Assembly: GCA_965231015.1 (NCBI GenBank)
Contig: OZ246408.1
Coordinates: 857,908-921,907, forward strand
DNA: 64,000 bases
Source of the DNA: an uncultured Gammaproteobacteria bacterium
GTDB taxonomy: Bacteria > Patescibacteriota > Patescibacteriia > UBA9934 > CAZDDW01
Direction: 5' to 3'
Part shown: piece after piece, positions 1,364-56,662 of the stretch
How positions within the stretch are numbered: the stretch's first letter is position 1
How the letters are laid out: each line of letters begins with the position of its first letter
Notes under the pieces: model-generated
What the model saw: only the letters and a program-made list of their open reading frames with translations
Database searches by the model: none
What the model was told of the DNA's origin: nothing
Made by a program: the position numbers and the translations under genes

Positions 1364-2708
1364 TCTTCCCAGTCACCGCGTGCGAAATCAGCGACGAGCG
1401 GTATTCTTGAATTAACCTGATCGACTTTTGGATTTTTTTGATAGCTCTATCAATCTCCAATGTTTTCTTATCTAAAAAATATGCAATGTTTTTTTGAATA
1501 GACGTACTGGGTACAGGTATTGATTCCGTAAAATATGATTTGACATCTAGATTCTGAATACCAGTTGTCTGCTTTATGAACTTTTTATTGACTCCTTTAA
1601 CGTACATAGCTCTATTGAGATATGTAAAGTACTTTGAGTCGACAGAATCATTTAATCGTATAGTTTCAATGAAATTTGAATTTACTGCGGTGTTGTTCAA
1701 ATCAAACTGGACAATTCTGCCAACTGGTGTCTTTTCTCCACCTCCAGACTTCTCAAGTAATAGATCACCAAGCTGCAGTTTTTTTGAGCTAAGATGATTC
1801 CTCGCTACATCTCGGAAAGTGTAACCCTCAGGCTTTAATCTAAGATTTGTATAAACAAAGTCAGCAACTCGGACACATAATGTTCCAGTTTCTTCAGTCG
1901 CTTCACCATCACCCCATGTTCCACCAAAGTGAGTGCTAATGAAATCCTTTTGCCTTTGGACATCCCACCCCTCTGGCATCTCGCCAATCCATTCAACACC
2001 CGAATCTTTCATCTTCACATTCGGATCCAGGCCTTTTGTAACAGCTTGCGTAATCAAAGCCGCGCGTTTTTCTTTCAGAAGCTCGATCTGCTTCTTTTTC
2101 TTTTTCTCCACCTCATCAATCACGGCCGTTTTTTCATCAAGAAAATCTGCAATGCGTTTTTGTTGATCTGCTGATGGAAGCAGAACGCCGAGTCGTTCAA
2201 AATCATGTCGTTTTACTTGAAGTGAATTTGGTCGAACCCCATAAAGTAGGCTGGTATATTTTTGAACATACTCATATGAACGTAATAAATAGTGAGCGAA
2301 ACGACTCTCGATCTTATTACTTAAATAGTAACTCTGATAGGCCGGGCTAACGTATCCGTCAAGGGCTGAAACTCCTAGTCCTTTAAAGTTCAACCACATA
2401 GTATTAACGACAAGTTGACCCTTATGAACAATGCGATAGTTACTATTATCTTCTGAGACTAATTGACCGTCATTTGTTGTCACATTCCTGGGCTCAACTC
2501 CTCGATACCCTGATACAGATAACGCAAGCTCAAAATCAGGGTGATCTTTAACGCGTTCATCACTTGCCCACATGACAAATTTTAATGGTTTAAAAATCCA
2601 GTCATTTGGAATATGCACAATCCATTCAACACCTGAATTTTTCATCTCCTTTTTGTCTCGTAATGTGTATTTCATATTTATTGCCACAAATTTACAAACC
2701 AATTCCAA
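1350..2708 (-). CDS. hsdS: Type I restriction-modification specificity subunit HsdS (two target-recognition domains)
   Basis: Duplicated TRD lead-in motifs GVEWIVHIPNDW / GVEWIGEMPEGW, conserved central and C-terminal coiled-coil repeats (LDEKTAVIDEVEKKKKKQIELLKEKRAALITQAVTGKL / YFLDKKTLEIDRAIKKIQKSIRLIQEYRSSLISHAVTGKI); alternative internal starts at 2675/2645 possible. Confidence 0.85.
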   Translation of the reverse strand: MELVCKFVAINMKYTLRDKKEMKNSGVEWIVHIPNDWIFKPLKFVMWASDERVKDHPDFELALSVSGYRGVEPRNVTTNDGQLVSEDNSNYRIVHKGQLVVNTMWLNFKGLGVSALDGYVSPAYQSYYLSNKIESRFAHYLLRSYEYVQKYTSLLYGVRPNSLQVKRHDFERLGVLLPSADQQKRIADFLDEKTAVIDEVEKKKKKQIELLKEKRAALITQAVTKGLDPNVKMKDSGVEWIGEMPEGWDVQRQKDFISTHFGGTWGDGEATEETGTLCVRVADFVYTNLRLKPEGYTFRDVARNHLSSKKLQLGDLLLEKSGGGEKTPVGRIVQFDLNNTAVNSNFIETIRLNDSVDSKYFTYLNRAMYVKGVNKKFIKQTTGIQNLDVKSYFTESIPVPSTSIQKNIAYFLDKKTLEIDRAIKKIQKSIRLIQEYRSSLISHAVTGKIVVE

Positions 2709-24574: not shown

Positions 24575-24642
24575 AATTTTGGCTCGTCGCACGTCGCACG
24601 TCGTTTAGCAACGACGGGCGATTTGCTACGGGCGATTTTCTT
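24575..24642 (-). repeat. (GACGTGC)n heptamer repeat plus conserved hairpin module (CGUCGUU-loop-AACGACG, GCGAUUUGC) between rplW and rplB
   Basis: Transcript sense reads CGACGUGCGACGUGCGACGAG; same module at 26371-26440; heptamer also at 55679-55706. Confidence 0.5.
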
Positions 24643-27192: not shown

Positions 27193-28383
27193 TTAATTAA
27201 CAATCTTGGTTACTACACCAGCTCCAACAGTTCGTCCACCTTCACGAATAGCAAAACGCTGCTGTTCCTCAAGAGCAATCGGCTGGATAAGCTTAACGGT
27301 TGCACCATTAATGGTGTCACCTGGCATAGCCATTTCTACTCCTTCTGGCAAGGTTACTTCACCGGTAACGTCAGTAGTTCGGATGTAGAACTGTGGCTTG
27401 TAACCCTTAAAGAATGGCTTGTGTCGTCCACCCTCTTCTTTGGTAAGAGCATACAGTTCACACTCAAACTCGGTATGTGGGGTTACAGTACCAGGAGCAG
27501 CCAAGACCTGACCACGCTCAACTTCATCCTTCTTGGTTCCACGGAGCAGGATTCCAGCGTTGTCACCGGCCTGACCTTGATCAAGAGTCTTGTTAAACAT
27601 TTCCACACCAGTAACAGTGGTCTTGGTAGTGTCTTTAATACCAACCATTTCAACTTCCTCACCGGTCTTAACAATTCCACGCTCGATTCGTCCAGTTACA
27701 ACTGTTCCACGTCCCTCAATTGAGAAAACGTCTTCAATCGGCATCAGGAATGGCTTATCAACGTCACGTTGTGGTTCAGGAATATATTCATCAAGCTTGG
27801 CAAGTAGTTCTTTAATTGGCTTGGCAGCCTCTTCGTCTGAAGGATTCTCAAGAGCCTTAAGAGCAGAACCACGAATAATTGGAGTTTCATCTCCTGGGAA
27901 TTCGTACTGCTTAAGAAGGTCTCGAATTTCTTCTTCAACCAGGTCAATAAGCTCCGGGTCATCTACCATGTCAACTTTGTTTAAGAAAACAACAATGGCA
28001 GGAACACCAACCTGACGAGCGAGCAAAATATGCTCACGAGTCTGTGGCATTGGACCATCAGCTGCTGACACAACGAGAATTGATCCGTCCATCTGAGCAG
28101 CACCGGTAATCATGTTTTTTACGTAGTCGGCGTGTCCTGGACAGTCAACGTGAGCGTAGTGACGCTTATCGGTTTCGTACTCAACGTGAGAAGTAGCAAT
28201 GGTAATTCCACGCTCTTTTTCTTCCGGAGCGTTGTCAATCTGGTCAAAACCCTTGGCCTGACCACCACCCATGACAGAAGCCACGGCGGTAATAGCCGCA
28301 GTAAGAGTGGTTTTACCGTGGTCAACGTGACCAATGGTACCCACGTTTACGTGCGGTTTTGATCGTTCAAATGTATCGGCCAT
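27193..28383 (-). CDS. tuf: elongation factor Tu
   Basis: [23 protein letters not shown]-motifs. Confidence 0.98.
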
Positions 28384-29277: not shown

Positions 29278-29325
29278 TGACGTGGATCTCCCACGAGGGG
29301 AGATAATGTGAGGAGGGTTGGTAGT

Positions 29326-30609
29326 CTACTTGACCTGCTCGGTCTTGTAGACCGTGCAGGTCTTGTAGGTACCAGTGGCGTCCTTGCTGTTGCGAGCGCA
29401 ACGACGGTCAACGCCGTCCGGGCACTCGAAGAGCAAGATGTGGTGGTCCAACAACTGGTAGCTCTGGCAGGTGGTCGATTCCTGATCGACCAGCTCGGAG
29501 CTCGACGTGCACTCGTCGGCGTGAGCCGGCGGATTCTTGCTCCCGTAGTCCATGATCGGCACGAGGAGCGCGAAGGCCAGCACAGCTGCGGCCACCGCGG
29601 CCTTGGCCACGGTACGACCGACCTGACGCGGCTGGCGCGTCGACATGATCTCGGTGATCTCGGTCTCGTCGTAGGTGACGTCGTCGTCCGGGTCCAGGCT
29701 CTCGATGACGGGCTCGGTGGCGGCCAGGCGTGCCTGGGCCATCAAACCATCCTCGATCCCGTTCACTCGACCCTTGAGCGCGTCGTGTTCGTCAGTCTGG
29801 ATCCGGATGATCTCGCGAAGCTCCGCGAGGTCTCGCTCCGACATCTGTCGGACGAACTCGGCGATCATCTCGGTCTCTTCTGATCGCACCTCGGCCTCGG
29901 TTCGGACAGTTCCGGCCAGATCCGTGAGACGCTGATCGATCTGTGCGATCTGCCGCGAACGGTCGGCGCCGTGCTCGAACAGTCGCTTGATGTCGGCGTG
30001 ATGCTCGGCCGTACGGGTCTTGAGCCCCGTCACGTCGCGGCCGTGTCCGTCCACGCGGTTCGTCAGCTTCTCCGCATCAGCTCGGATCTCGGTCCGCTCT
30101 TTGTCGGCCCGGTTGATCTGCGTCACCATATGCCGGGTCAGATGAACGAACGCTCGCTGGCGCTCTGCCAGCTCGAGCCGCTGGCGTCGAGCCGTCCGTT
30201 GCTCGTCCTCGATCGCCTTGAGCTTGTTGTGCACCTTCAGGTTCAAGTTCCCGAGTTGTCTCTTGATCCCGGCCCGCTCGTCGTTGGCGATCTTCCGGCC
30301 GGTGAGGAGCTTGGCCAGCTCCTTACGGAACTCGTCGAAGTCCTGCCTGAGCTTGGGAACCTCGCGCCGCTCGATCTGCTTGATCCTGGCTTTCAGGGTC
30401 TTCTGCTTGCGCACGAGCAGATTCAACTCCTCGTCCACATCGAGCTCCAGCACGAGGTCGTCCAGCTCTTCACCAAGGTCGACATCATCCGCATCGTCCG
30501 GCTCGGCACCACAGAACTCGGGCACATCGATGTAGCTCTGACTGGCTCGTTCGGTCTCGCACCTGTTCAAGGTCTCGAGCCAATGAGCAGCCTGCTTATC
30601 ACTCGTCAT
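29326..30609 (-). CDS. coiled-coil protein with C-terminal TM anchor and Cys-rich extracytoplasmic tail (start at MTSDKQ, RBS GGGAGGAGGAA)
   Basis: Long E/R/K-rich heptad region, hydrophobic AAVAAAVLAFALLVPIM, terminal Cys cluster; G/C-ending codon bias. Confidence 0.5.
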   Translation of the reverse strand: MTSDKQAAHWLETLNRCETERASQSYIDVPEFCGAEPDDADDVDLGEELDDLVLELDVDEELNLLVRKQKTLKARIKQIERREVPKLRQDFDEFRKELAKLLTGRKIANDERAGIKRQLGNLNLKVHNKLKAIEDEQRTARRQRLELAERQRAFVHLTRHMVTQINRADKERTEIRADAEKLTNRVDGHGRDVTGLKTRTAEHHADIKRLFEHGADRSRQIAQIDQRLTDLAGTVRTEAEVRSEETEMIAEFVRQMSERDLAELREIIRIQTDEHDALKGRVNGIEDGLMAQARLAATEPVIESLDPDDDVTYDETEITEIMSTRQPRQVGRTVAKAAVAAAVLAFALLVPIMDYGSKNPPAHADECTSSSELVDQESTTCQSYQLLDHHILLFECPDGVDRRCARNSKDATGTYKTCTVYKTEQVK

Positions 30610-30873
30610 CGGGGGTTCCTCCTCCCGTTGTTGGTTGCAAATTTTAAATGCCACTGCCCTACTTTTAAGCCAAAACTGGGCTTAATTTCGAACTAAGTAA
30701 ATTATCAGAAAAAGGGTAGTTTGTCAACCCCCTGTCGTACGGGACTGACCTCGTTCAACAAGGTCAAGAGTTATCCTATAATTAGAAGCCCCCGACACAA
30801 GCGTCACACATTCGTTCGTGTGAGCCCATGTCAGGGGCAGAGCCGCCGAGATCTTCGGCGGGAAGGGGGTTTT

Positions 30874-31938
30874 TTAGGACTGGGGGTGAAGCGCGTTCCA
30901 GTCCGCTTCGAGTGCCTGGAGCATCTCGTCGCGGTGCGGGAACGCCTGATCCACGAGCCGCAGCTCGTAGTGGGCGCGCTTGACGCGCGCTTCGGACTTG
31001 GTCTTGTCGAACCGGGTCGACAGCGTGGCGATCGCCCACTTGTAACGAGCGATCTGATCCGCGCCGGAGTGACCTCGACCGGCGTCCACGTACCGGTTCA
31101 AATACGTGAGCTCCATCTCGCCGAGGCTCGTCTTGATCTCGGAGACCGTCTTGTCCTCCTGCTGGAGGACCCCGAGCTTGAACTCGAGGTCACGGAAGTC
31201 GGCTCCCGCGGCCCGCCAGTGGCTTGCGAGCACGGTCCCGGATTCGAGGGAATCGAGCCCGATGGCCGTCACGACCTCCGGGTCGGCGTTGCGGATGGCG
31301 GTCACGACCTGGAACACGACGTTCGGGTCGGCCGTGGCGTGCGCCATGATCGCCGGCAGCTCCGGACACTCCGGGAGCAGACCGAGCTGGGTCGGCACCT
31401 CGACGGGCATACCCGCGGCCACGTAGGCCGCGAACACGTTGGACCAGTTCTGGAGGTAAATGGGTACCTCCTGCTCCCCGGCCACCACGGCGCCGTCACG
31501 ATCGAACTCGCGGAGCATGACCGTGACGATGTTCGGTCCGACTTCGCGCGGGAGCTGGGGCCAGCCGGTCGTGTCGATCGACTCGAACAGCTTGGCCGCG
31601 GCGTAGTAGGGCCGCAGCTTCTTCAGGGCCCTGGCGTTCATCTCGTCCACGTGAACCTGCGGGTCCACGGGAACTTCGATCGCGGGTTCAGGCTCGGACT
31701 TGGGCTCGACCGCGGGTGCGGGTGCGGCCGGACTCGCCGGCTGTCCGGTGGCCGTCTCGACGACCTGCTCGGGCTGCTCCACAGCCCGCTTGTTCTTGAC
31801 CGCCTTGACGATCAAGAAGGTCGCGGTCAGTCCGACCATGATCAAGAACACCACCAGACCGCCGACGGCGGGCCACATCCAGCGCGGCAGCGGTGCCTCT
31901 TCCGTGAGAACGGGGGATGAAACATGTTCCGTGGTCAT
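30874..31938 (-). CDS. membrane-anchored hypothetical protein (start at MTTEHV; N-terminal TM helix WMWPAVGGLVVFLIMVGLTATFLIV)
   Basis: Longest ORF in this GC-rich segment, sensible composition; antisense 399-aa ORF is R/G/L-rich. Confidence 0.5.
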   Translation of the reverse strand: MTTEHVSSPVLTEEAPLPRWMWPAVGGLVVFLIMVGLTATFLIVKAVKNKRAVEQPEQVVETATGQPASPAAPAPAVEPKSEPEPAIEVPVDPQVHVDEMNARALKKLRPYYAAAKLFESIDTTGWPQLPREVGPNIVTVMLREFDRDGAVVAGEQEVPIYLQNWSNVFAAYVAAGMPVEVPTQLGLLPECPELPAIMAHATADPNVVFQVVTAIRNADPEVVTAIGLDSLESGTVLASHWRAAGADFRDLEFKLGVLQQEDKTVSEIKTSLGEMELTYLNRYVDAGRGHSGADQIARYKWAIATLSTRFDKTKSEARVKRAHYELRLVDQAFPHRDEMLQALEADWNALHPQS

Positions 31939-32105
31939 CTCTTCCTCCTTGCTATTTTGGGCCCTTTCGGGCTCCCGTTTTGGGGCCCGTACAGGGCGAA
32001 TCAAAGCGTCCGAGGGTGAAAAATTTCACCTGTTACGAACGACGTAATGTATCATATTTTAGCCAAAAAGTCAACCCCTAAAGGTTGTTTTTGGCCAAAA
32101 TATAA

Positions 32106-32154: not shown

Positions 32155-34245
32155 TTACTCCGCTTTCTTGCTTCCCCGCTTTTCAATAATCTCATCTGCC
32201 ACATTCTTTGGCACATCTTCATAGTGATCAAATTCCATGCTGTAGCTGGCACGACCCTGGGTAATACTTCTAAGCTCCGTAGCGTAACCAAACATTTCAG
32301 CCAGTGGAACATGAGCCTCAACAACCTTCATGTTTCCCCGGTCTCGCATTTCCTGAATTTGAGCCCGTTTTGCGTTCAAGTCTCCGACCACAGTTCCCAT
32401 AAACTCTTCCGGGGTCACAACTTCAACCGCCATGATCGGCTCAAGCAAAGTAATTCCAGCATTCTTGGCCGCAGCCTGAAAAGCCATAGAACCGGCGATC
32501 TTAAAGGCGGCTTCAGACGAGTCAACTTCGTGATAGCTTCCGTCATATACAGTACACTTGATGTCGAGCACCGGATATCCGGCCAGAACTCCGCGTTCCA
32601 TAGCTTCCTTAACACCCTTTTCAATAGGTCCAATAAATTCCTTTGGAATCACACCACCCTTAATTTCATCATAAAACTCAAACCCGGTTCCCTGCTCAAG
32701 CGGTTCCAAGCGTAACCAACAGTGCCCATACTGTCCACGGCCACCTGATTGGCGGACAAATTTTCCTTCAGCCTCAGCGGTTTTCTTAATACTTTCTTTG
32801 TAGGCCACTTGCGGAGCACCCACGTTGGCCTCCACTTTGAACTCACGTTTCATGCGATCCACGATAATGTCCAAGTGCAGCTCTCCCATTCCGGAAATGA
32901 TGGTCTGGAGAGTATCATCATCAGTTCTCACCTGGAAGGTTGGATCTTCTTCGGCTAACTTGGTAAGCGCCACACCCATCTTTTCCTGGTCAGCTTTGGT
33001 CTTTGGCTCAATCGCCACAGAAATAACCGGTTCTGGGAAAGTAATGGATTCAAGCACTACTGGATTATCCGGGTCACACAAAGTCTGACCGGTTGTAGTG
33101 TTCTTAAGTCCTACCACAGCAGCAATATCTCCGGCATAAATTTCATCGATTTCCTCACGCGAGTTAGCGTGCATTCGCAGCAATCGACCAATTCGTTCCT
33201 TGTTTCCGGTTGAAGCATTCAAAACATACGATCCTGACTTCAAGACGCCGGAATAAACTCGGACAAAAGCCAGTTTTCCAACGAAAGGATCGGTTGCAAT
33301 CTTGAAAGCCAAAGCCGCAAACGATTCTTCATCACTCGCATGGTGCTCAATCTTTTTCTCTTCATCATCCGGATCAGTTCCCTCAACTGCCGGTACCTCA
33401 AGTGGGCTTGGCAGGTAATCAACCACGGCATCAAGCAAAGGCTGAACTCCCTTATTTTTCAGAGCTGACCCACAGAACACAGGAATAAGTTGCAAGCTAA
33501 CCACAGCTTTGTGTAATACCTTTTTTAAATCTTCATGAGGGATATCTTCGCCGGACAAATACTTTTCCATTAAGGCTTCATCATTTTCTACAATGGCTTC
33601 AATCAACTTGCCACGCCATTCTTCTGCGGTTGCCTTCATGTCCTCCGGAACATCAACCACGTCCATATCTTTTCCAAGGTCATCATTGTAAATAGTGGCC
33701 TTCATGGTTAGAAGATCAATGATTCCCTTAAAGTTATCTTCAGCACCGATTGGTAGTTGAGCTGGCAGGGCCTTGGTAGTCAATCGTTCGTGGATTGAAT
33801 CCAAGTCTGCAAAGAAGTCAGCTCCAGTTCGATCAAGTTTATTGATATAACAAATTCGCGGCACGTTGTATTTATCAGCCTGGTGCCAAACAGTTTCTGA
33901 CTGTGGCTCAACACCGGCCACACCGTCAAACACAACCACACCACCGTCGAGCACACGCAAAGAACGCTCCACCTCAACAGTGAAGTCAACGTGTCCCGGG
34001 GTGTCGATAATGTTCACACGGTGATCTTTCCAAAAACAGGTAGTCGCCGCAGAGGTAATGGTAATTCCACGCTCCTGCTCCTGCTCCATCCAGTCCATTT
34101 CCGCTTCACCTTCGTGCACCTCACCGATTTTATGCTTCTTGCCGGTGTAGAAAAGCACACGCTCGGTCACGGTTGTTTTACCAGCATCAATGTGAGCAAT
34201 GATTCCGATGTTACGAGTTTTTTCAAGAGAATATTCTCGAGGCAT
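32155..34245 (-). CDS. fusA: elongation factor G
   Basis: [18 protein letters not shown]-motifs; 696 aa. Confidence 0.98.
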
Positions 34246-55049: not shown

Positions 55050-55340
55050 TATAAAGGGGCGGTTAAGTTGGAATCGGACCAAGCTTAACCGCCCCGGCGC
55101 GTGTGGCTGACGCAAGACAACTGCATCAACCGGGCAACGAACCGTCGAAGTGGGAGGAATCGCGGCTCGTAAAGAACTTGGGAAGGTGCGGCAGGGAGCG
55201 GGGTATCCCTGCCGCACCCGGGTGAGTCCGGTGAGGGAGCCGGACGTAGGAGCCTGGAATGGTCGGGGCAACCGGAGAGCACGCCAAGCGCCCGTGTATC
55301 GCTCTCCGGCGCCCCTGCACCATGTCGCTAAATTAACGCT
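55050..55340 (-). ncRNA. structured ncRNA candidate (~285 nt, ~62% GC) in infB/truB divergent intergenic region; class unresolved
   Basis: Consensus -35 TTGACA on minus strand (rc of 55359-55364) preceded by AT-rich heptamer repeats. 16-bp hairpin (55055-55094) followed on minus strand by UUUAUAAUU = intrinsic terminator. Perfect 13-bp hairpin GGUGCGGCAGGGA/UCCCUGCCGCACC (55185-55218); 9-bp CCGGAGAGC/GCUCUCCGG helix; no coding potential. Confidence 0.35.
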
Positions 55341-55365
55341 AACACCCACCTATAATTATGTCAAG

Positions 55366-55405
55366 ATACTTTATACTTTATACTTTATACTTAATACTTT
55401 ATACT
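55366..55405. repeat. tandem heptamer repeat (ATACTTT)x5.5 immediately upstream of truB ATG
   Basis: atacttt atacttt atacttt atactta atacttt atact. Confidence 0.6.
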
Positions 55406-55413
55406 GCTCACAT

Positions 55414-56109
55414 ATGCAAGGCTTTATTTTAATTGACAAACCAACTGACTGGACCAGCCACGATGTTGTGAATCGAGTTCGAAAGCTGACCGGCGAACGC
55501 AAAGTCGGCCACGCCGGCACCCTGGATCCGTTTGCGACCGGGTTGCTGATTATTGGGGTTGGAAAAAAATACACTAAACAACTAGGTGAACTGATTGGGC
55601 TCAACAAAGAATACGAGGCAACGTTTGTTCTTGGTGCCACGAGCGCTACCGATGACCCGGAAGGACCAATCACTGAACGACGTGCGACGTGCGACGTGCG
55701 ACGTGCCCAAATCGAGGAGGCCATGAAAAAATACATGGGCGAAATCGACCAAGTTCCTCCGCGTTTTGCTGCCATTAAAAAAGACGGCAAGAAGTTATAC
55801 GAAAAAGCTCGAGCTGGAGAAGAATTTGAACCTGAATCTCGCAAGGTCAGAGTCGATGAATATGAGCTTCTCAAAACATCAGACGATAATCACAAATTAA
55901 AAGTCCGGATCAAATGTGGATCCGGGACCTATATTCGAGCTTTAGCGCGAGACTTAGGAAACGATCTTGGAGTCGGCGGTTATGTAAGTGAGCTTAGACG
56001 AACTAGGGTGGGAGACTTTGATGTTTCCGATTCAACACCCCTTGAGGAACTCGCCCCTAACAACATCGAGTCAAAAATTTTTCAAAAAGAAGAAGCGGGA
56101 TCCCGGTAG
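55414..56109 (+). CDS. truB: tRNA pseudouridine(55) synthase TruB, containing an in-frame (GACGTGC)x4 repeat
   Basis: MQGFILIDKPTDWTSHDVVNRVRKL...GHAGTLDP catalytic Asp motif; repeat encodes ERRATCDVRRAQ. Confidence 0.9.
   Translation: MQGFILIDKPTDWTSHDVVNRVRKLTGERKVGHAGTLDPFATGLLIIGVGKKYTKQLGELIGLNKEYEATFVLGATSATDDPEGPITERRATCDVRRAQIEEAMKKYMGEIDQVPPRFAAIKKDGKKLYEKARAGEEFEPESRKVRVDEYELLKTSDDNHKLKVRIKCGSGTYIRALARDLGNDLGVGGYVSELRRTRVGDFDVSDSTPLEELAPNNIESKIFQKEEAGSR
55679..55706 (+). repeat. (GACGTGC)x4 heptamer repeat inside truB coding sequence
   Basis: same heptamer family as rplB/rplC upstream modules, in transcript sense. Confidence 0.6.
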
Positions 56110-56128
56110 GATTCCGCTTCGGAAGAAA

Positions 56129-56232
56129 TGGTGAGGCCAGATGGAATCGAACCATCGACCGCTGGGGCTCCTCTGGACCATCTAGAACTTGACGACCCAT
56201 ACCCAGTGCTCTACCAGCTGAGCTATAGCCTC
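56129..56232 (-). tRNA. tRNA gene (104 nt, CCA-encoded) with ~28-nt insertion/intron-like segment in the anticodon-loop region; isotype undetermined
   Basis: acceptor GAGGCUA/UGGCCUC, U8A9, D-arm GCUC-AGCUGGUA-GAGC, anticodon stem CUGGG/CCCAG separated by 35 nt instead of 7, variable CGGUC, T-arm GAUGG-UUCGAUU-CCAUC, discriminator A + CCA. Confidence 0.55.
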
Positions 56233-56251
56233 ACTTAAAAGTACTTTTTGT

Positions 56252-56322
56252 GTTGCGGTCAAGTCATGCCGGCCAGATGTGCCAGGGGGAGGTCACATGT
56301 GACCCAAGGACCTGACCGCAAC
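56252..56322. promoter_or_regulatory. nested palindromic structure (10-bp outer stem GTTGCGGTCA/TGACCGCAAC enclosing perfect 14-nt palindrome GGTCACATGTGACC) just upstream of the tRNA
   Basis: inverted repeats read directly. Confidence 0.3.
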
Positions 56323-56662
56323 GAAACAATTTATACCAAACTCTCAAAAAACTGTCAAGCCCAGCTAAAATAGGCCTGTTTTTGGTTCCCTTGCCAAAAA
56401 GAAAAAAGCGTGCTAGTGTGCTTTTGTAATTAATGATTATATTATTGAAGGTCGGTTGATTTTTGAGGATACGAAAAATCCCTGAAACGGACGTGTACGA
56501 ACGAAACATTATGACGTTTAACTTCAACTTTTTGAAACTTTCGTCGAGCCTGACTCGACTAAAGCGACAATTGAACGCCTTAAACTAAGGGACAGCGAGT
56601 CCTAATTTTTCGTACCTAGATATCCCGTCGAGGGACAATCCGACCTCCAAGCTAAAAACTCT

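Follow-up and report, generated by a model that had tools for sequence, protein, structure and literature searches.

The element at positions 56129-56232 of the window (the whole stretch of 64,000 nucleotides analysed here) is a gene of tRNA type with a well-formed cloverleaf body and an anticodon loop of 35 nt. The earlier note had described a tRNA-type gene with an insertion of about 28 nt at this place, and its coordinates proved exact, the coding strand being the minus strand. Our best explanation, to which we give about an even chance, is an insertion-disabled, probably expressed and non-decoding accessory tRNA gene in a slot of rapid turnover between truB and rny, that is, a relic without a dedicated function. 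That the RNA would be unable to decode as it stands is well supported, as far as sequence can tell.

The tRNA-like gene and its flanking signals

The features recognized at the locus are as follows.
56353-56358, minus strand: promoter-like -35 hexamer TTGACA, read directly; a TGTCAA/TTGACA block stands at the equivalent place in relatives
56330-56335, minus strand: -10 hexamer TATAAA, 17 nt after the -35 hexamer, read directly
56245-56329, minus strand: leader hairpin of about 85 nt between the promoter-like site and the tRNA-like gene, from an inverted repeat and MFE
56129-56232, minus strand: tRNA-like gene, 104 nt including the encoded CCA, from the Rfam match and the sequence
56202-56232, minus strand: 5' body with acceptor strand GAGGCUA, U8 and A9, D arm, A26 and anticodon-stem half CUGGG, from the Rfam alignment
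56167-56201, minus strand: anticodon 'loop' of 35 nt (7 + 28 nt), from folds
56132-56166, minus strand: 3' body with CCCAG, variable loop, T arm GAUGG-UUCGAUU-CCAUC, acceptor strand UGGCCUC and discriminator A73, from the Rfam alignment
56095-56117, no strand assigned: terminator-like hairpin overlapping the truB stop codon, with one A.C mismatch on the minus strand, read directly and unlisted by the scan tool

In RNA order, the gene reads GAGGCUA-UA-GCUC-AGCUGGUA-GAGC-A-CUGGG-(35 nt: UAUGGGUCGUCAAGUUCUAGAUGGUCCAGAGGAGC)-CCCAG-CGGUC-GAUGG-UUCGAUU-CCAUC-UGGCCUC-A-CCA, with G1 at 56232, A73 at 56132 and CCA at 56131-56129 on the minus strand. The earlier note had listed U8, G18G19, the T-loop UUCGAUU, a discriminator A and an encoded CCA, and all of these are present on reading the sequence; its statement that the halves CUGGG and CCCAG stand 35 nt apart, without U33, was found to be accurate on both counts. 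The body is canonical, with a 7-bp acceptor stem (one of the seven pairs being G.U), a 4-bp D stem, a 5-bp T stem, U8, G18G19, a UUCRA T-loop and a discriminator base. A canonical anticodon loop of 7 nt with U33 and a purine at 37 is lacking, the loop being 35 nt long with A at position 33. Rfam model RF00005 matches the gene end to end (model positions 1-71) with 56.6 bits and an E value of 1.5e-9 for the window, a score far above chance expectation (the gathering score is 29 bits), and models an insertion of 34 nt within the anticodon loop that CUGGG and CCCAG enclose. Host tRNA genes were surveyed within the 64-kb window, and its two ordinary tRNAs, Arg-TCG and Lys-CTT, reach 68-69 bits with the same model, so that the deficit of about 12 bits corresponds to about the cost of the loop. 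By similarity to 79 tRNAs from the loci compared, the best isotype is Lys-CTT, through generic likeness of the D arm and variable loop only.

ARAGORN returned three mutually inconsistent calls, including Arg-TCT of 88 nt and, with introns allowed, Leu-CAA with an 8-nt intron; because these calls disagree, and each of them rests on mismatched stems, there is no consistent anticodon. Taken at face value, such outputs would make the gene a standard tRNA with another fold, either a class II Leu-CAA with a long variable arm and an 8-nt intron or an 88-nt Arg-UCU, which we hold to be extremely improbable: the two models contradict one another, their stems are G.U-rich or mismatched, and one of them needs an unpaired 25-nt 'variable arm'. 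The covariance model prefers the five Watson-Crick pairs CUGGG/CCCAG together with a normal CGGUC variable loop, and the D arm GCUC-AGCUGGUA-GAGC is of the class I type. A standard class II fold was what the earlier note had proposed to look for as a refutation, and this check was negative, the covariance model giving class I with an anticodon-loop insertion; a class II tRNA would have its extra nucleotides paired in a long variable arm and keep an anticodon loop of 7 nt, and here the variable loop has 5 nt and the extra bases lie in the anticodon loop.

The rule of the automated promoter scan demands T at position 6 of the -10 hexamer, and TTGACA-17-TATAAA was therefore unlisted and read by eye; the transcription start implied by it would lie near 56323. 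The leader hairpin that follows has an MFE of -45.5 kcal/mol (z = -5.8, with 0 of 200 shuffles as stable) and comprises a perfect 14-bp palindrome, GGTCACATGTGACC, at 56291-56304, and imperfect terminal inverted repeats of 21 nt. It belongs to no Rfam family and has no second copy in the window or in any compared locus, and the leaders of the relatives are 12-26 nt long, without such a hairpin. Candidate identities are a small palindromic insertion, an operator and a small RNA freed by RNase P. At the other end, UUCUUCUUUUU follows the 56095-56117 hairpin on the minus strand, which makes it the likely terminator of the tRNA-like transcript; relatives show cleaner terminators at the equivalent place.

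The insert and the question of splicing

The insert is predicted to form a G.U-rich hairpin of 9 bp (56199-56174) with an 8-nt loop, AAGUUCUA, and with unpaired flanks of 2 nt on the 5' side (UA) and 7 nt on the 3' side (GAGGAGC). Folded under a constrained outer stem, it is as stable as shuffled inserts (z = -0.03; 45% of shuffles reach its stability), and the whole tRNA-like RNA gives z = -1.2 against shuffles. Several candidate identities of the insert were discarded. A kink-turn in the 2x7 internal loop was rejected by eye, only one G.A pair being possible; the Shine-Dalgarno-like AGGAG within the unpaired GAGGAGC is not common to the tRNA-like genes of the related locus L003 and has a chance expectation of about 3%. 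When the insert was compared by BLAST with the window and every locus, chance 11- to 14-mers alone came up, leaving it unique in the window and not a copy of any DNA searched, and the idea that it is a decayed copy of the T arm of the same gene (GGUCG...UUC...) was unconvincing at about 12 matches in 26.

The earlier note had considered a novel short intron, and this idea went unsupported: no contiguous deletion produces a canonical loop, no bulge-helix-bulge (BHB) brackets the insert, and no ribozyme or intron family matches it. Among the 18 products of 28-nt block deletions from the 45-nt anticodon arm, none is a 7-nt loop with U33, position 33 being A or another base that is not U, and the same single-excision trial on two L003 genes gave no canonical product at any offset. 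An exhaustive strict scan for a helix-flanked 3-4-3 BHB at the insert junctions found none; the sole strict BHB in the RNA is internal to the insert and would remove 13 nt. In one of the L003 genes (L003-A), a strict-looking BHB would yield a CCA anticodon, but with a 5-nt loop or a stem of only 4 bp, and such motifs are expected by chance at a rate of 1-5 per RNA. Besides tRNA, no Rfam intron or ribozyme family matches at the gathering score or at E <= 5.

The tRNA introns known from Patescibacteria are group I introns in the anticodon loop at position 35/36; they follow a U, have G as their last base and leave a loop of 7 nt once removed, and they have been found with RF00028 (PMC13011429). 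In our gene no boundary pair meets all three of these requirements, and the core of such an intron, for which some hundreds of nt would be expected, is equally missing, the insert having 28 nt and no Rfam match other than tRNA; this length cannot hold a group I or group II core. It is well supported, in sum, that the insert belongs to no known type of intron.

Splicing of one genuine short intron, or of two, by an unrecognised or protein-based route could still give a working tRNA, perhaps with a loop lacking U33 such as UAUGGGC/U (Pro-UGG-like, with A33). The first seven loop bases, UAUGGGU, do resemble the tRNA-Pro(UGG) loop UUUGGGA, from which they differ at positions 33 and 38, a Pro(GGG) gene occupies the slot of another relative, and an insert of exactly 28 nt occurs in two genes. 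Viruses offer a further parallel. A generic pattern (TAGCTCA..AGAGC..38-62 nt..GGTTCGA) has at least 120 viral matches in IMG/VR (L089-L208), and many of the listed matches are tRNA genes whose anticodon loop spans 19-43 nt and opens with a canonical YU-NNN-R, as expected for 37/38 introns (e.g., CUGUAG, CUUAUA). These long-loop tRNAs are Tyr-GUA-, Ile-UAU- and Asn-GUU-like, other listed matches having long variable arms. However, it is the YU-NNN-R prefix that marks 37/38 introns in the viral tRNAs; all of those with short inserts keep it, and our gene is without it.

Splicing is further opposed by the failure of all 18 deletions to restore U33, by junctions without a BHB, by a length far below that of group I or II ribozymes, none of which is found in Rfam, and by sibling genes in the slot with 6-nt loops or a D-loop insertion, which splicing does not explain. 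The identity elements point the same way, since the gene has G1-C72 as against C1-G72 in the tRNA-Pro genes of the compared loci, and U at D-loop position 20 as against the A20 expected for Arg. The bacterial ProRS recognises G72 and A73. In the data consulted on 95 complete Patescibacteria genomes, a set that may not include the present one, the tRNAs that tRNAscan-SE failed to find were exclusively those for Asn or Asp (PMC13011429), which argues against hidden essential tRNAs of other isotypes. We judge a working spliced tRNA to be improbable.

The truB-rny slot in related genomes

The genes surrounding the element encode RNase Y, YmdB, IF-2, TruB and HisRS, and the best homologs of RNase Y belong to Candidatus Uhrbacteria / Patescibacteria; the host, whose contig measures 1.0 Mb, is accordingly a member of Candidatus Uhrbacteria. 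The tRNA-like gene is flanked by the truB stop codon on one side and the rny promoter/leader on the other, with transcription directed at truB. The slot additionally holds variable small ORFs, including RHH/ParD-like (below threshold) and zinc-ribbon ones. An att site or integrase scar was considered and dismissed, as no direct repeats of tRNA fragments stand at the island ends. We surveyed the equivalent interval from 11 related loci, with RNase Y 72-85% identical, and found the following contents.
L001/L002, L004, L214, L215 and L216: slot empty (5 loci of 11)
L003: two tandem tRNA-like genes, one with a 35-nt anticodon loop (L003-A, 104 nt in total) and one with a 22-nt loop (U73, Gly-like)
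L211/L212: tRNA-like gene with a 6-nt anticodon loop, GGGUUC
L213: gene of 104 nt whose D-loop has 37 nt and whose anticodon loop, UCUUAA, has 6 nt
L210: Pro(GGG) at 1527-1602, minus strand, whose anticodon stem carries a bulged U and whose first pair is G1-C72
L087: Val(CAC) and Gly(GCC), the latter without a normal discriminator/CCA end

Eight distinct genes occupy the slot, and five of them deviate grossly from a normal tRNA, with anticodon loops of 35 nt (two genes), 22 nt and 6 nt and, in the fifth, a D-loop of 37 nt. Outside the slot, the anticodon arm is canonical in 75 of the 76 tRNAs found across 1.3 Mb of loci from CPR bacteria and Firmicutes; compared as 5/8 against 1/76, the difference gives a Fisher p of 1e-5. 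Beyond generic tRNA features, the slot genes do not align with one another and have no insert in common. Their acceptor stems are wholly different in sequence and all still paired, and every gene has promoter-like hexamers and a terminator of its own. The gene of the window and L003-A are independent and each carry exactly 28 extra nt in a total of 104 nt, the length also of the L213 gene. For the L003 inserts, the predicted fold is slightly more stable than that of shuffled versions (p about 0.03-0.04). In L210, G1-C72 (against C1-G72 in the tRNA-Pro genes of other loci) and the bulged U are a further sign that the genes of the slot may be foreign or degenerate. The earlier note's other proposal, an insertion-inactivated tRNA or a tRNA-like element, is supported by an intact body, a non-decoding anticodon arm and a slot that in relatives is empty or holds other aberrant genes of tRNA type.

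No ortholog with the present insert was found in related loci, viral collections, a phage database or proteins. Pattern scans of viral contigs for the tRNA-like gene gave 0 matches, BLAST against the phage database recovered generic tRNA fragments only, a protein search with the concatenated spurious ORFs across the element had 0 matches, and by BLAST neither the rest of the window nor any fetched locus shares the insert. An RNase Y profile search of genome contigs brought up relatives with at most 64% identity among the matches listed.

Several other observations concern the neighbourhood. The rny leader of about 270 nt (56400-56662) is conserved in L001, L003, L004, L087, L210, L211, L213 and L216, with the invariant blocks ATGCTAG, TATGRCGTT, AAGCSACAA..AACG and TAAGG-hairpin-TTTTTCGT, the last being terminator-like (56589-56603 plus a T-run). 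It has no Rfam match, a metagenome pattern scan with it gave one match, by chance, and its sequence suggests a conserved attenuator or a 5' UTR with an autoregulatory role. In L003 (2309-2560), three tandem units spaced 80-91 nt apart and containing TATCAT..AACCGATCGGCAACTTAGTGATTGCA lie between the tRNA-like genes and the rny leader. The truB ORF was called mechanically at 55150-56109 with 319 aa; TruB_N begins at residue 111 and the TruB proteins of relatives have 204-272 aa, and the true start is probably some 50-115 codons downstream of 55150. Heptamer repeats of ATACTTT (55366-55412) lie between infB and this likely start, and tandem CGACGTG heptamers occupy 55673-55712 in the long ORF containing truB, with an inverted copy of that repeat region (27-28 nt, 93% complementary) 31 kb away at 24576-24608. 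Elsewhere in the window, two minus-strand ORFs at 29326-30654 and 30874-32004 (442 and 376 aa) have 60-67% GC as compared with about 45% for the genome and sit between fusA (EF-G, 32155-34245) and tuf (EF-Tu, 27193-28383). Their translations, with many charged and hydrophobic stretches, have no Pfam match and no Rfam match was obtained; the pair (29300-32000) is probably a foreign insertion between fusA and tuf.

Relic or tRNA mimic, and comparison with known systems

As a relic, the element would be an accessory tRNA gene knocked out by a 28-nt insertion in its anticodon loop. It would be transcribed from TTGACA-17-TATAAA, RNase P would cut before G1, with U at -1, and the product, with its encoded CCA and intact elbow, would be a stable RNA of tRNA shape. 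The anticodon arm would be about twice the normal length, provided that the hairpin predicted for it forms, and would hold no usable anticodon, so that the RNA would stay outside translation. The gene would then be a leftover of fast tRNA-gene gain and decay at the truB/rny slot. The dispensability of the slot, the lineage-private aberrant genes, their heterogeneous lesions and an insert without a structural signal favour this reading. Against it count the perfect stems and universal tertiary nucleotides of all aberrant slot genes, whose lesions concentrate in the anticodon arm, as well as the retained promoter-like hexamers and terminator-like hairpin; CPR genomes of about 1 Mb are, moreover, usually thought to be low in dead DNA. 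Perfect bodies combined with anticodon-arm lesions are the pattern that selection for a tRNA-shaped, non-decoding RNA would give, but the pattern is partly a detection bias because only well-preserved bodies are detectable.

This bears on the possibility, which we regard as real though doubtful, that the gene encodes a functional tRNA mimic. Its conserved 'top half' (acceptor stem, T arm, D-loop/T-loop elbow and CCA) would serve as a handle for RNase P, the CCA-adding enzyme, TruB or a stabilising fold, and the anticodon arm would be free to vary or would carry a payload; the RNA might then decoy nucleases that target tRNAs, direct the processing that frees the 85-nt hairpin RNA upstream, or carry aminoacyl groups outside the ribosome. 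The excess of genes with perfect bodies and abnormal anticodon arms in the slot speaks for it, as do the promoter-like site and terminator of each slot gene, the acceptor stems that differ completely and all pair, and the exceptionally stable hairpin directly upstream in the same presumed transcript, but the slot is empty in so many relatives, no single slot gene is conserved across species, and the leader hairpin is missing in relatives. Likewise, the recurrence of the 28-nt insert and the 104-nt length in a streamlined genome and the variable small ORFs of the slot, as in accessory islets, would fit a mimic, whereas the lesions are mixed (insertions of 28, 28 and 15 nt, 1-nt deletions and a D-loop insertion) and do not follow one design, the structure of the present insert is no better than chance, no G3:U70 or other anticodon-independent identity set is visible by eye, and no conserved partner gene adjoins.

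The more far-reaching proposal is that the slot of this Uhrbacteria lineage holds a family of expressed, deliberately non-decoding tRNA mimics, in which the top half is selected and the anticodon arm discarded or replaced, acting as conflict decoys or as RNase P handles for adjacent small RNAs. We think this unlikely. In one proposed variant, the rapid turnover of the mimic RNAs would result from a role in conflict, e.g., as decoys for phage or host nucleases that attack anticodons or tRNAs.

If the gene is a relic, it calls for caution in annotation, as intron-aware finders give it three identities, and it should not be counted as an intron-containing Patescibacteria tRNA; it would also show that, at one site in a CPR genome of 1 Mb, tRNA genes are gained and decay rapidly. 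Should the slot genes instead be functional, bacteria would possess a class of tRNA-shaped RNAs under selection not to decode, with a bearing on tRNA mimicry outside translation in organisms with minimal genomes.

Among known systems, the closest to the insertion-disabled gene that we favour are tRNA pseudogenes and pseudo-tRNAs, such as tRNA-Other of Bacillus cereus and the tRNA-like genes in accessory tRNA arrays, some of which are expressed and have regulatory roles. Like them, the gene is tRNA-derived with its cloverleaf kept, would take no part in normal decoding, the loss of its decoding features being inferred from sequence, and is dispensable and patchy, with unrelated genes or none in the equivalent interval of close relatives. 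Unlike the usual pseudo-tRNAs, it has a 28-nt lesion exactly in the anticodon loop and is one of several differently damaged genes that replace each other at the same truB | rny slot of a CPR lineage.

With the group I tRNA introns of Patescibacteria, the insert shares the phylum and the site in the gene, the anticodon loop; unlike these self-splicing ribozymes, it has 28 nt, no match to a ribozyme model and no boundary that restores a U33 loop. Archaeal and eukaryal BHB introns of tRNA, usually at 37/38, are likewise short inserts in the anticodon loop that are able to pair with their neighbours, but here a bracketing BHB and the YU-NNN-R prefix are absent and the host is a bacterium, in which, from 64 kb of its genome, we know of no splicing enzymes. 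Finally, plant mitochondrial t-elements and the MALAT1 mascRNA are tRNA-like processing elements, and the present gene could resemble them as a tRNA-shaped module beside a structured RNA, the 3' end of which RNase P could define; the upstream hairpin occurs in this genome only, and the comparison is one of pure analogy.
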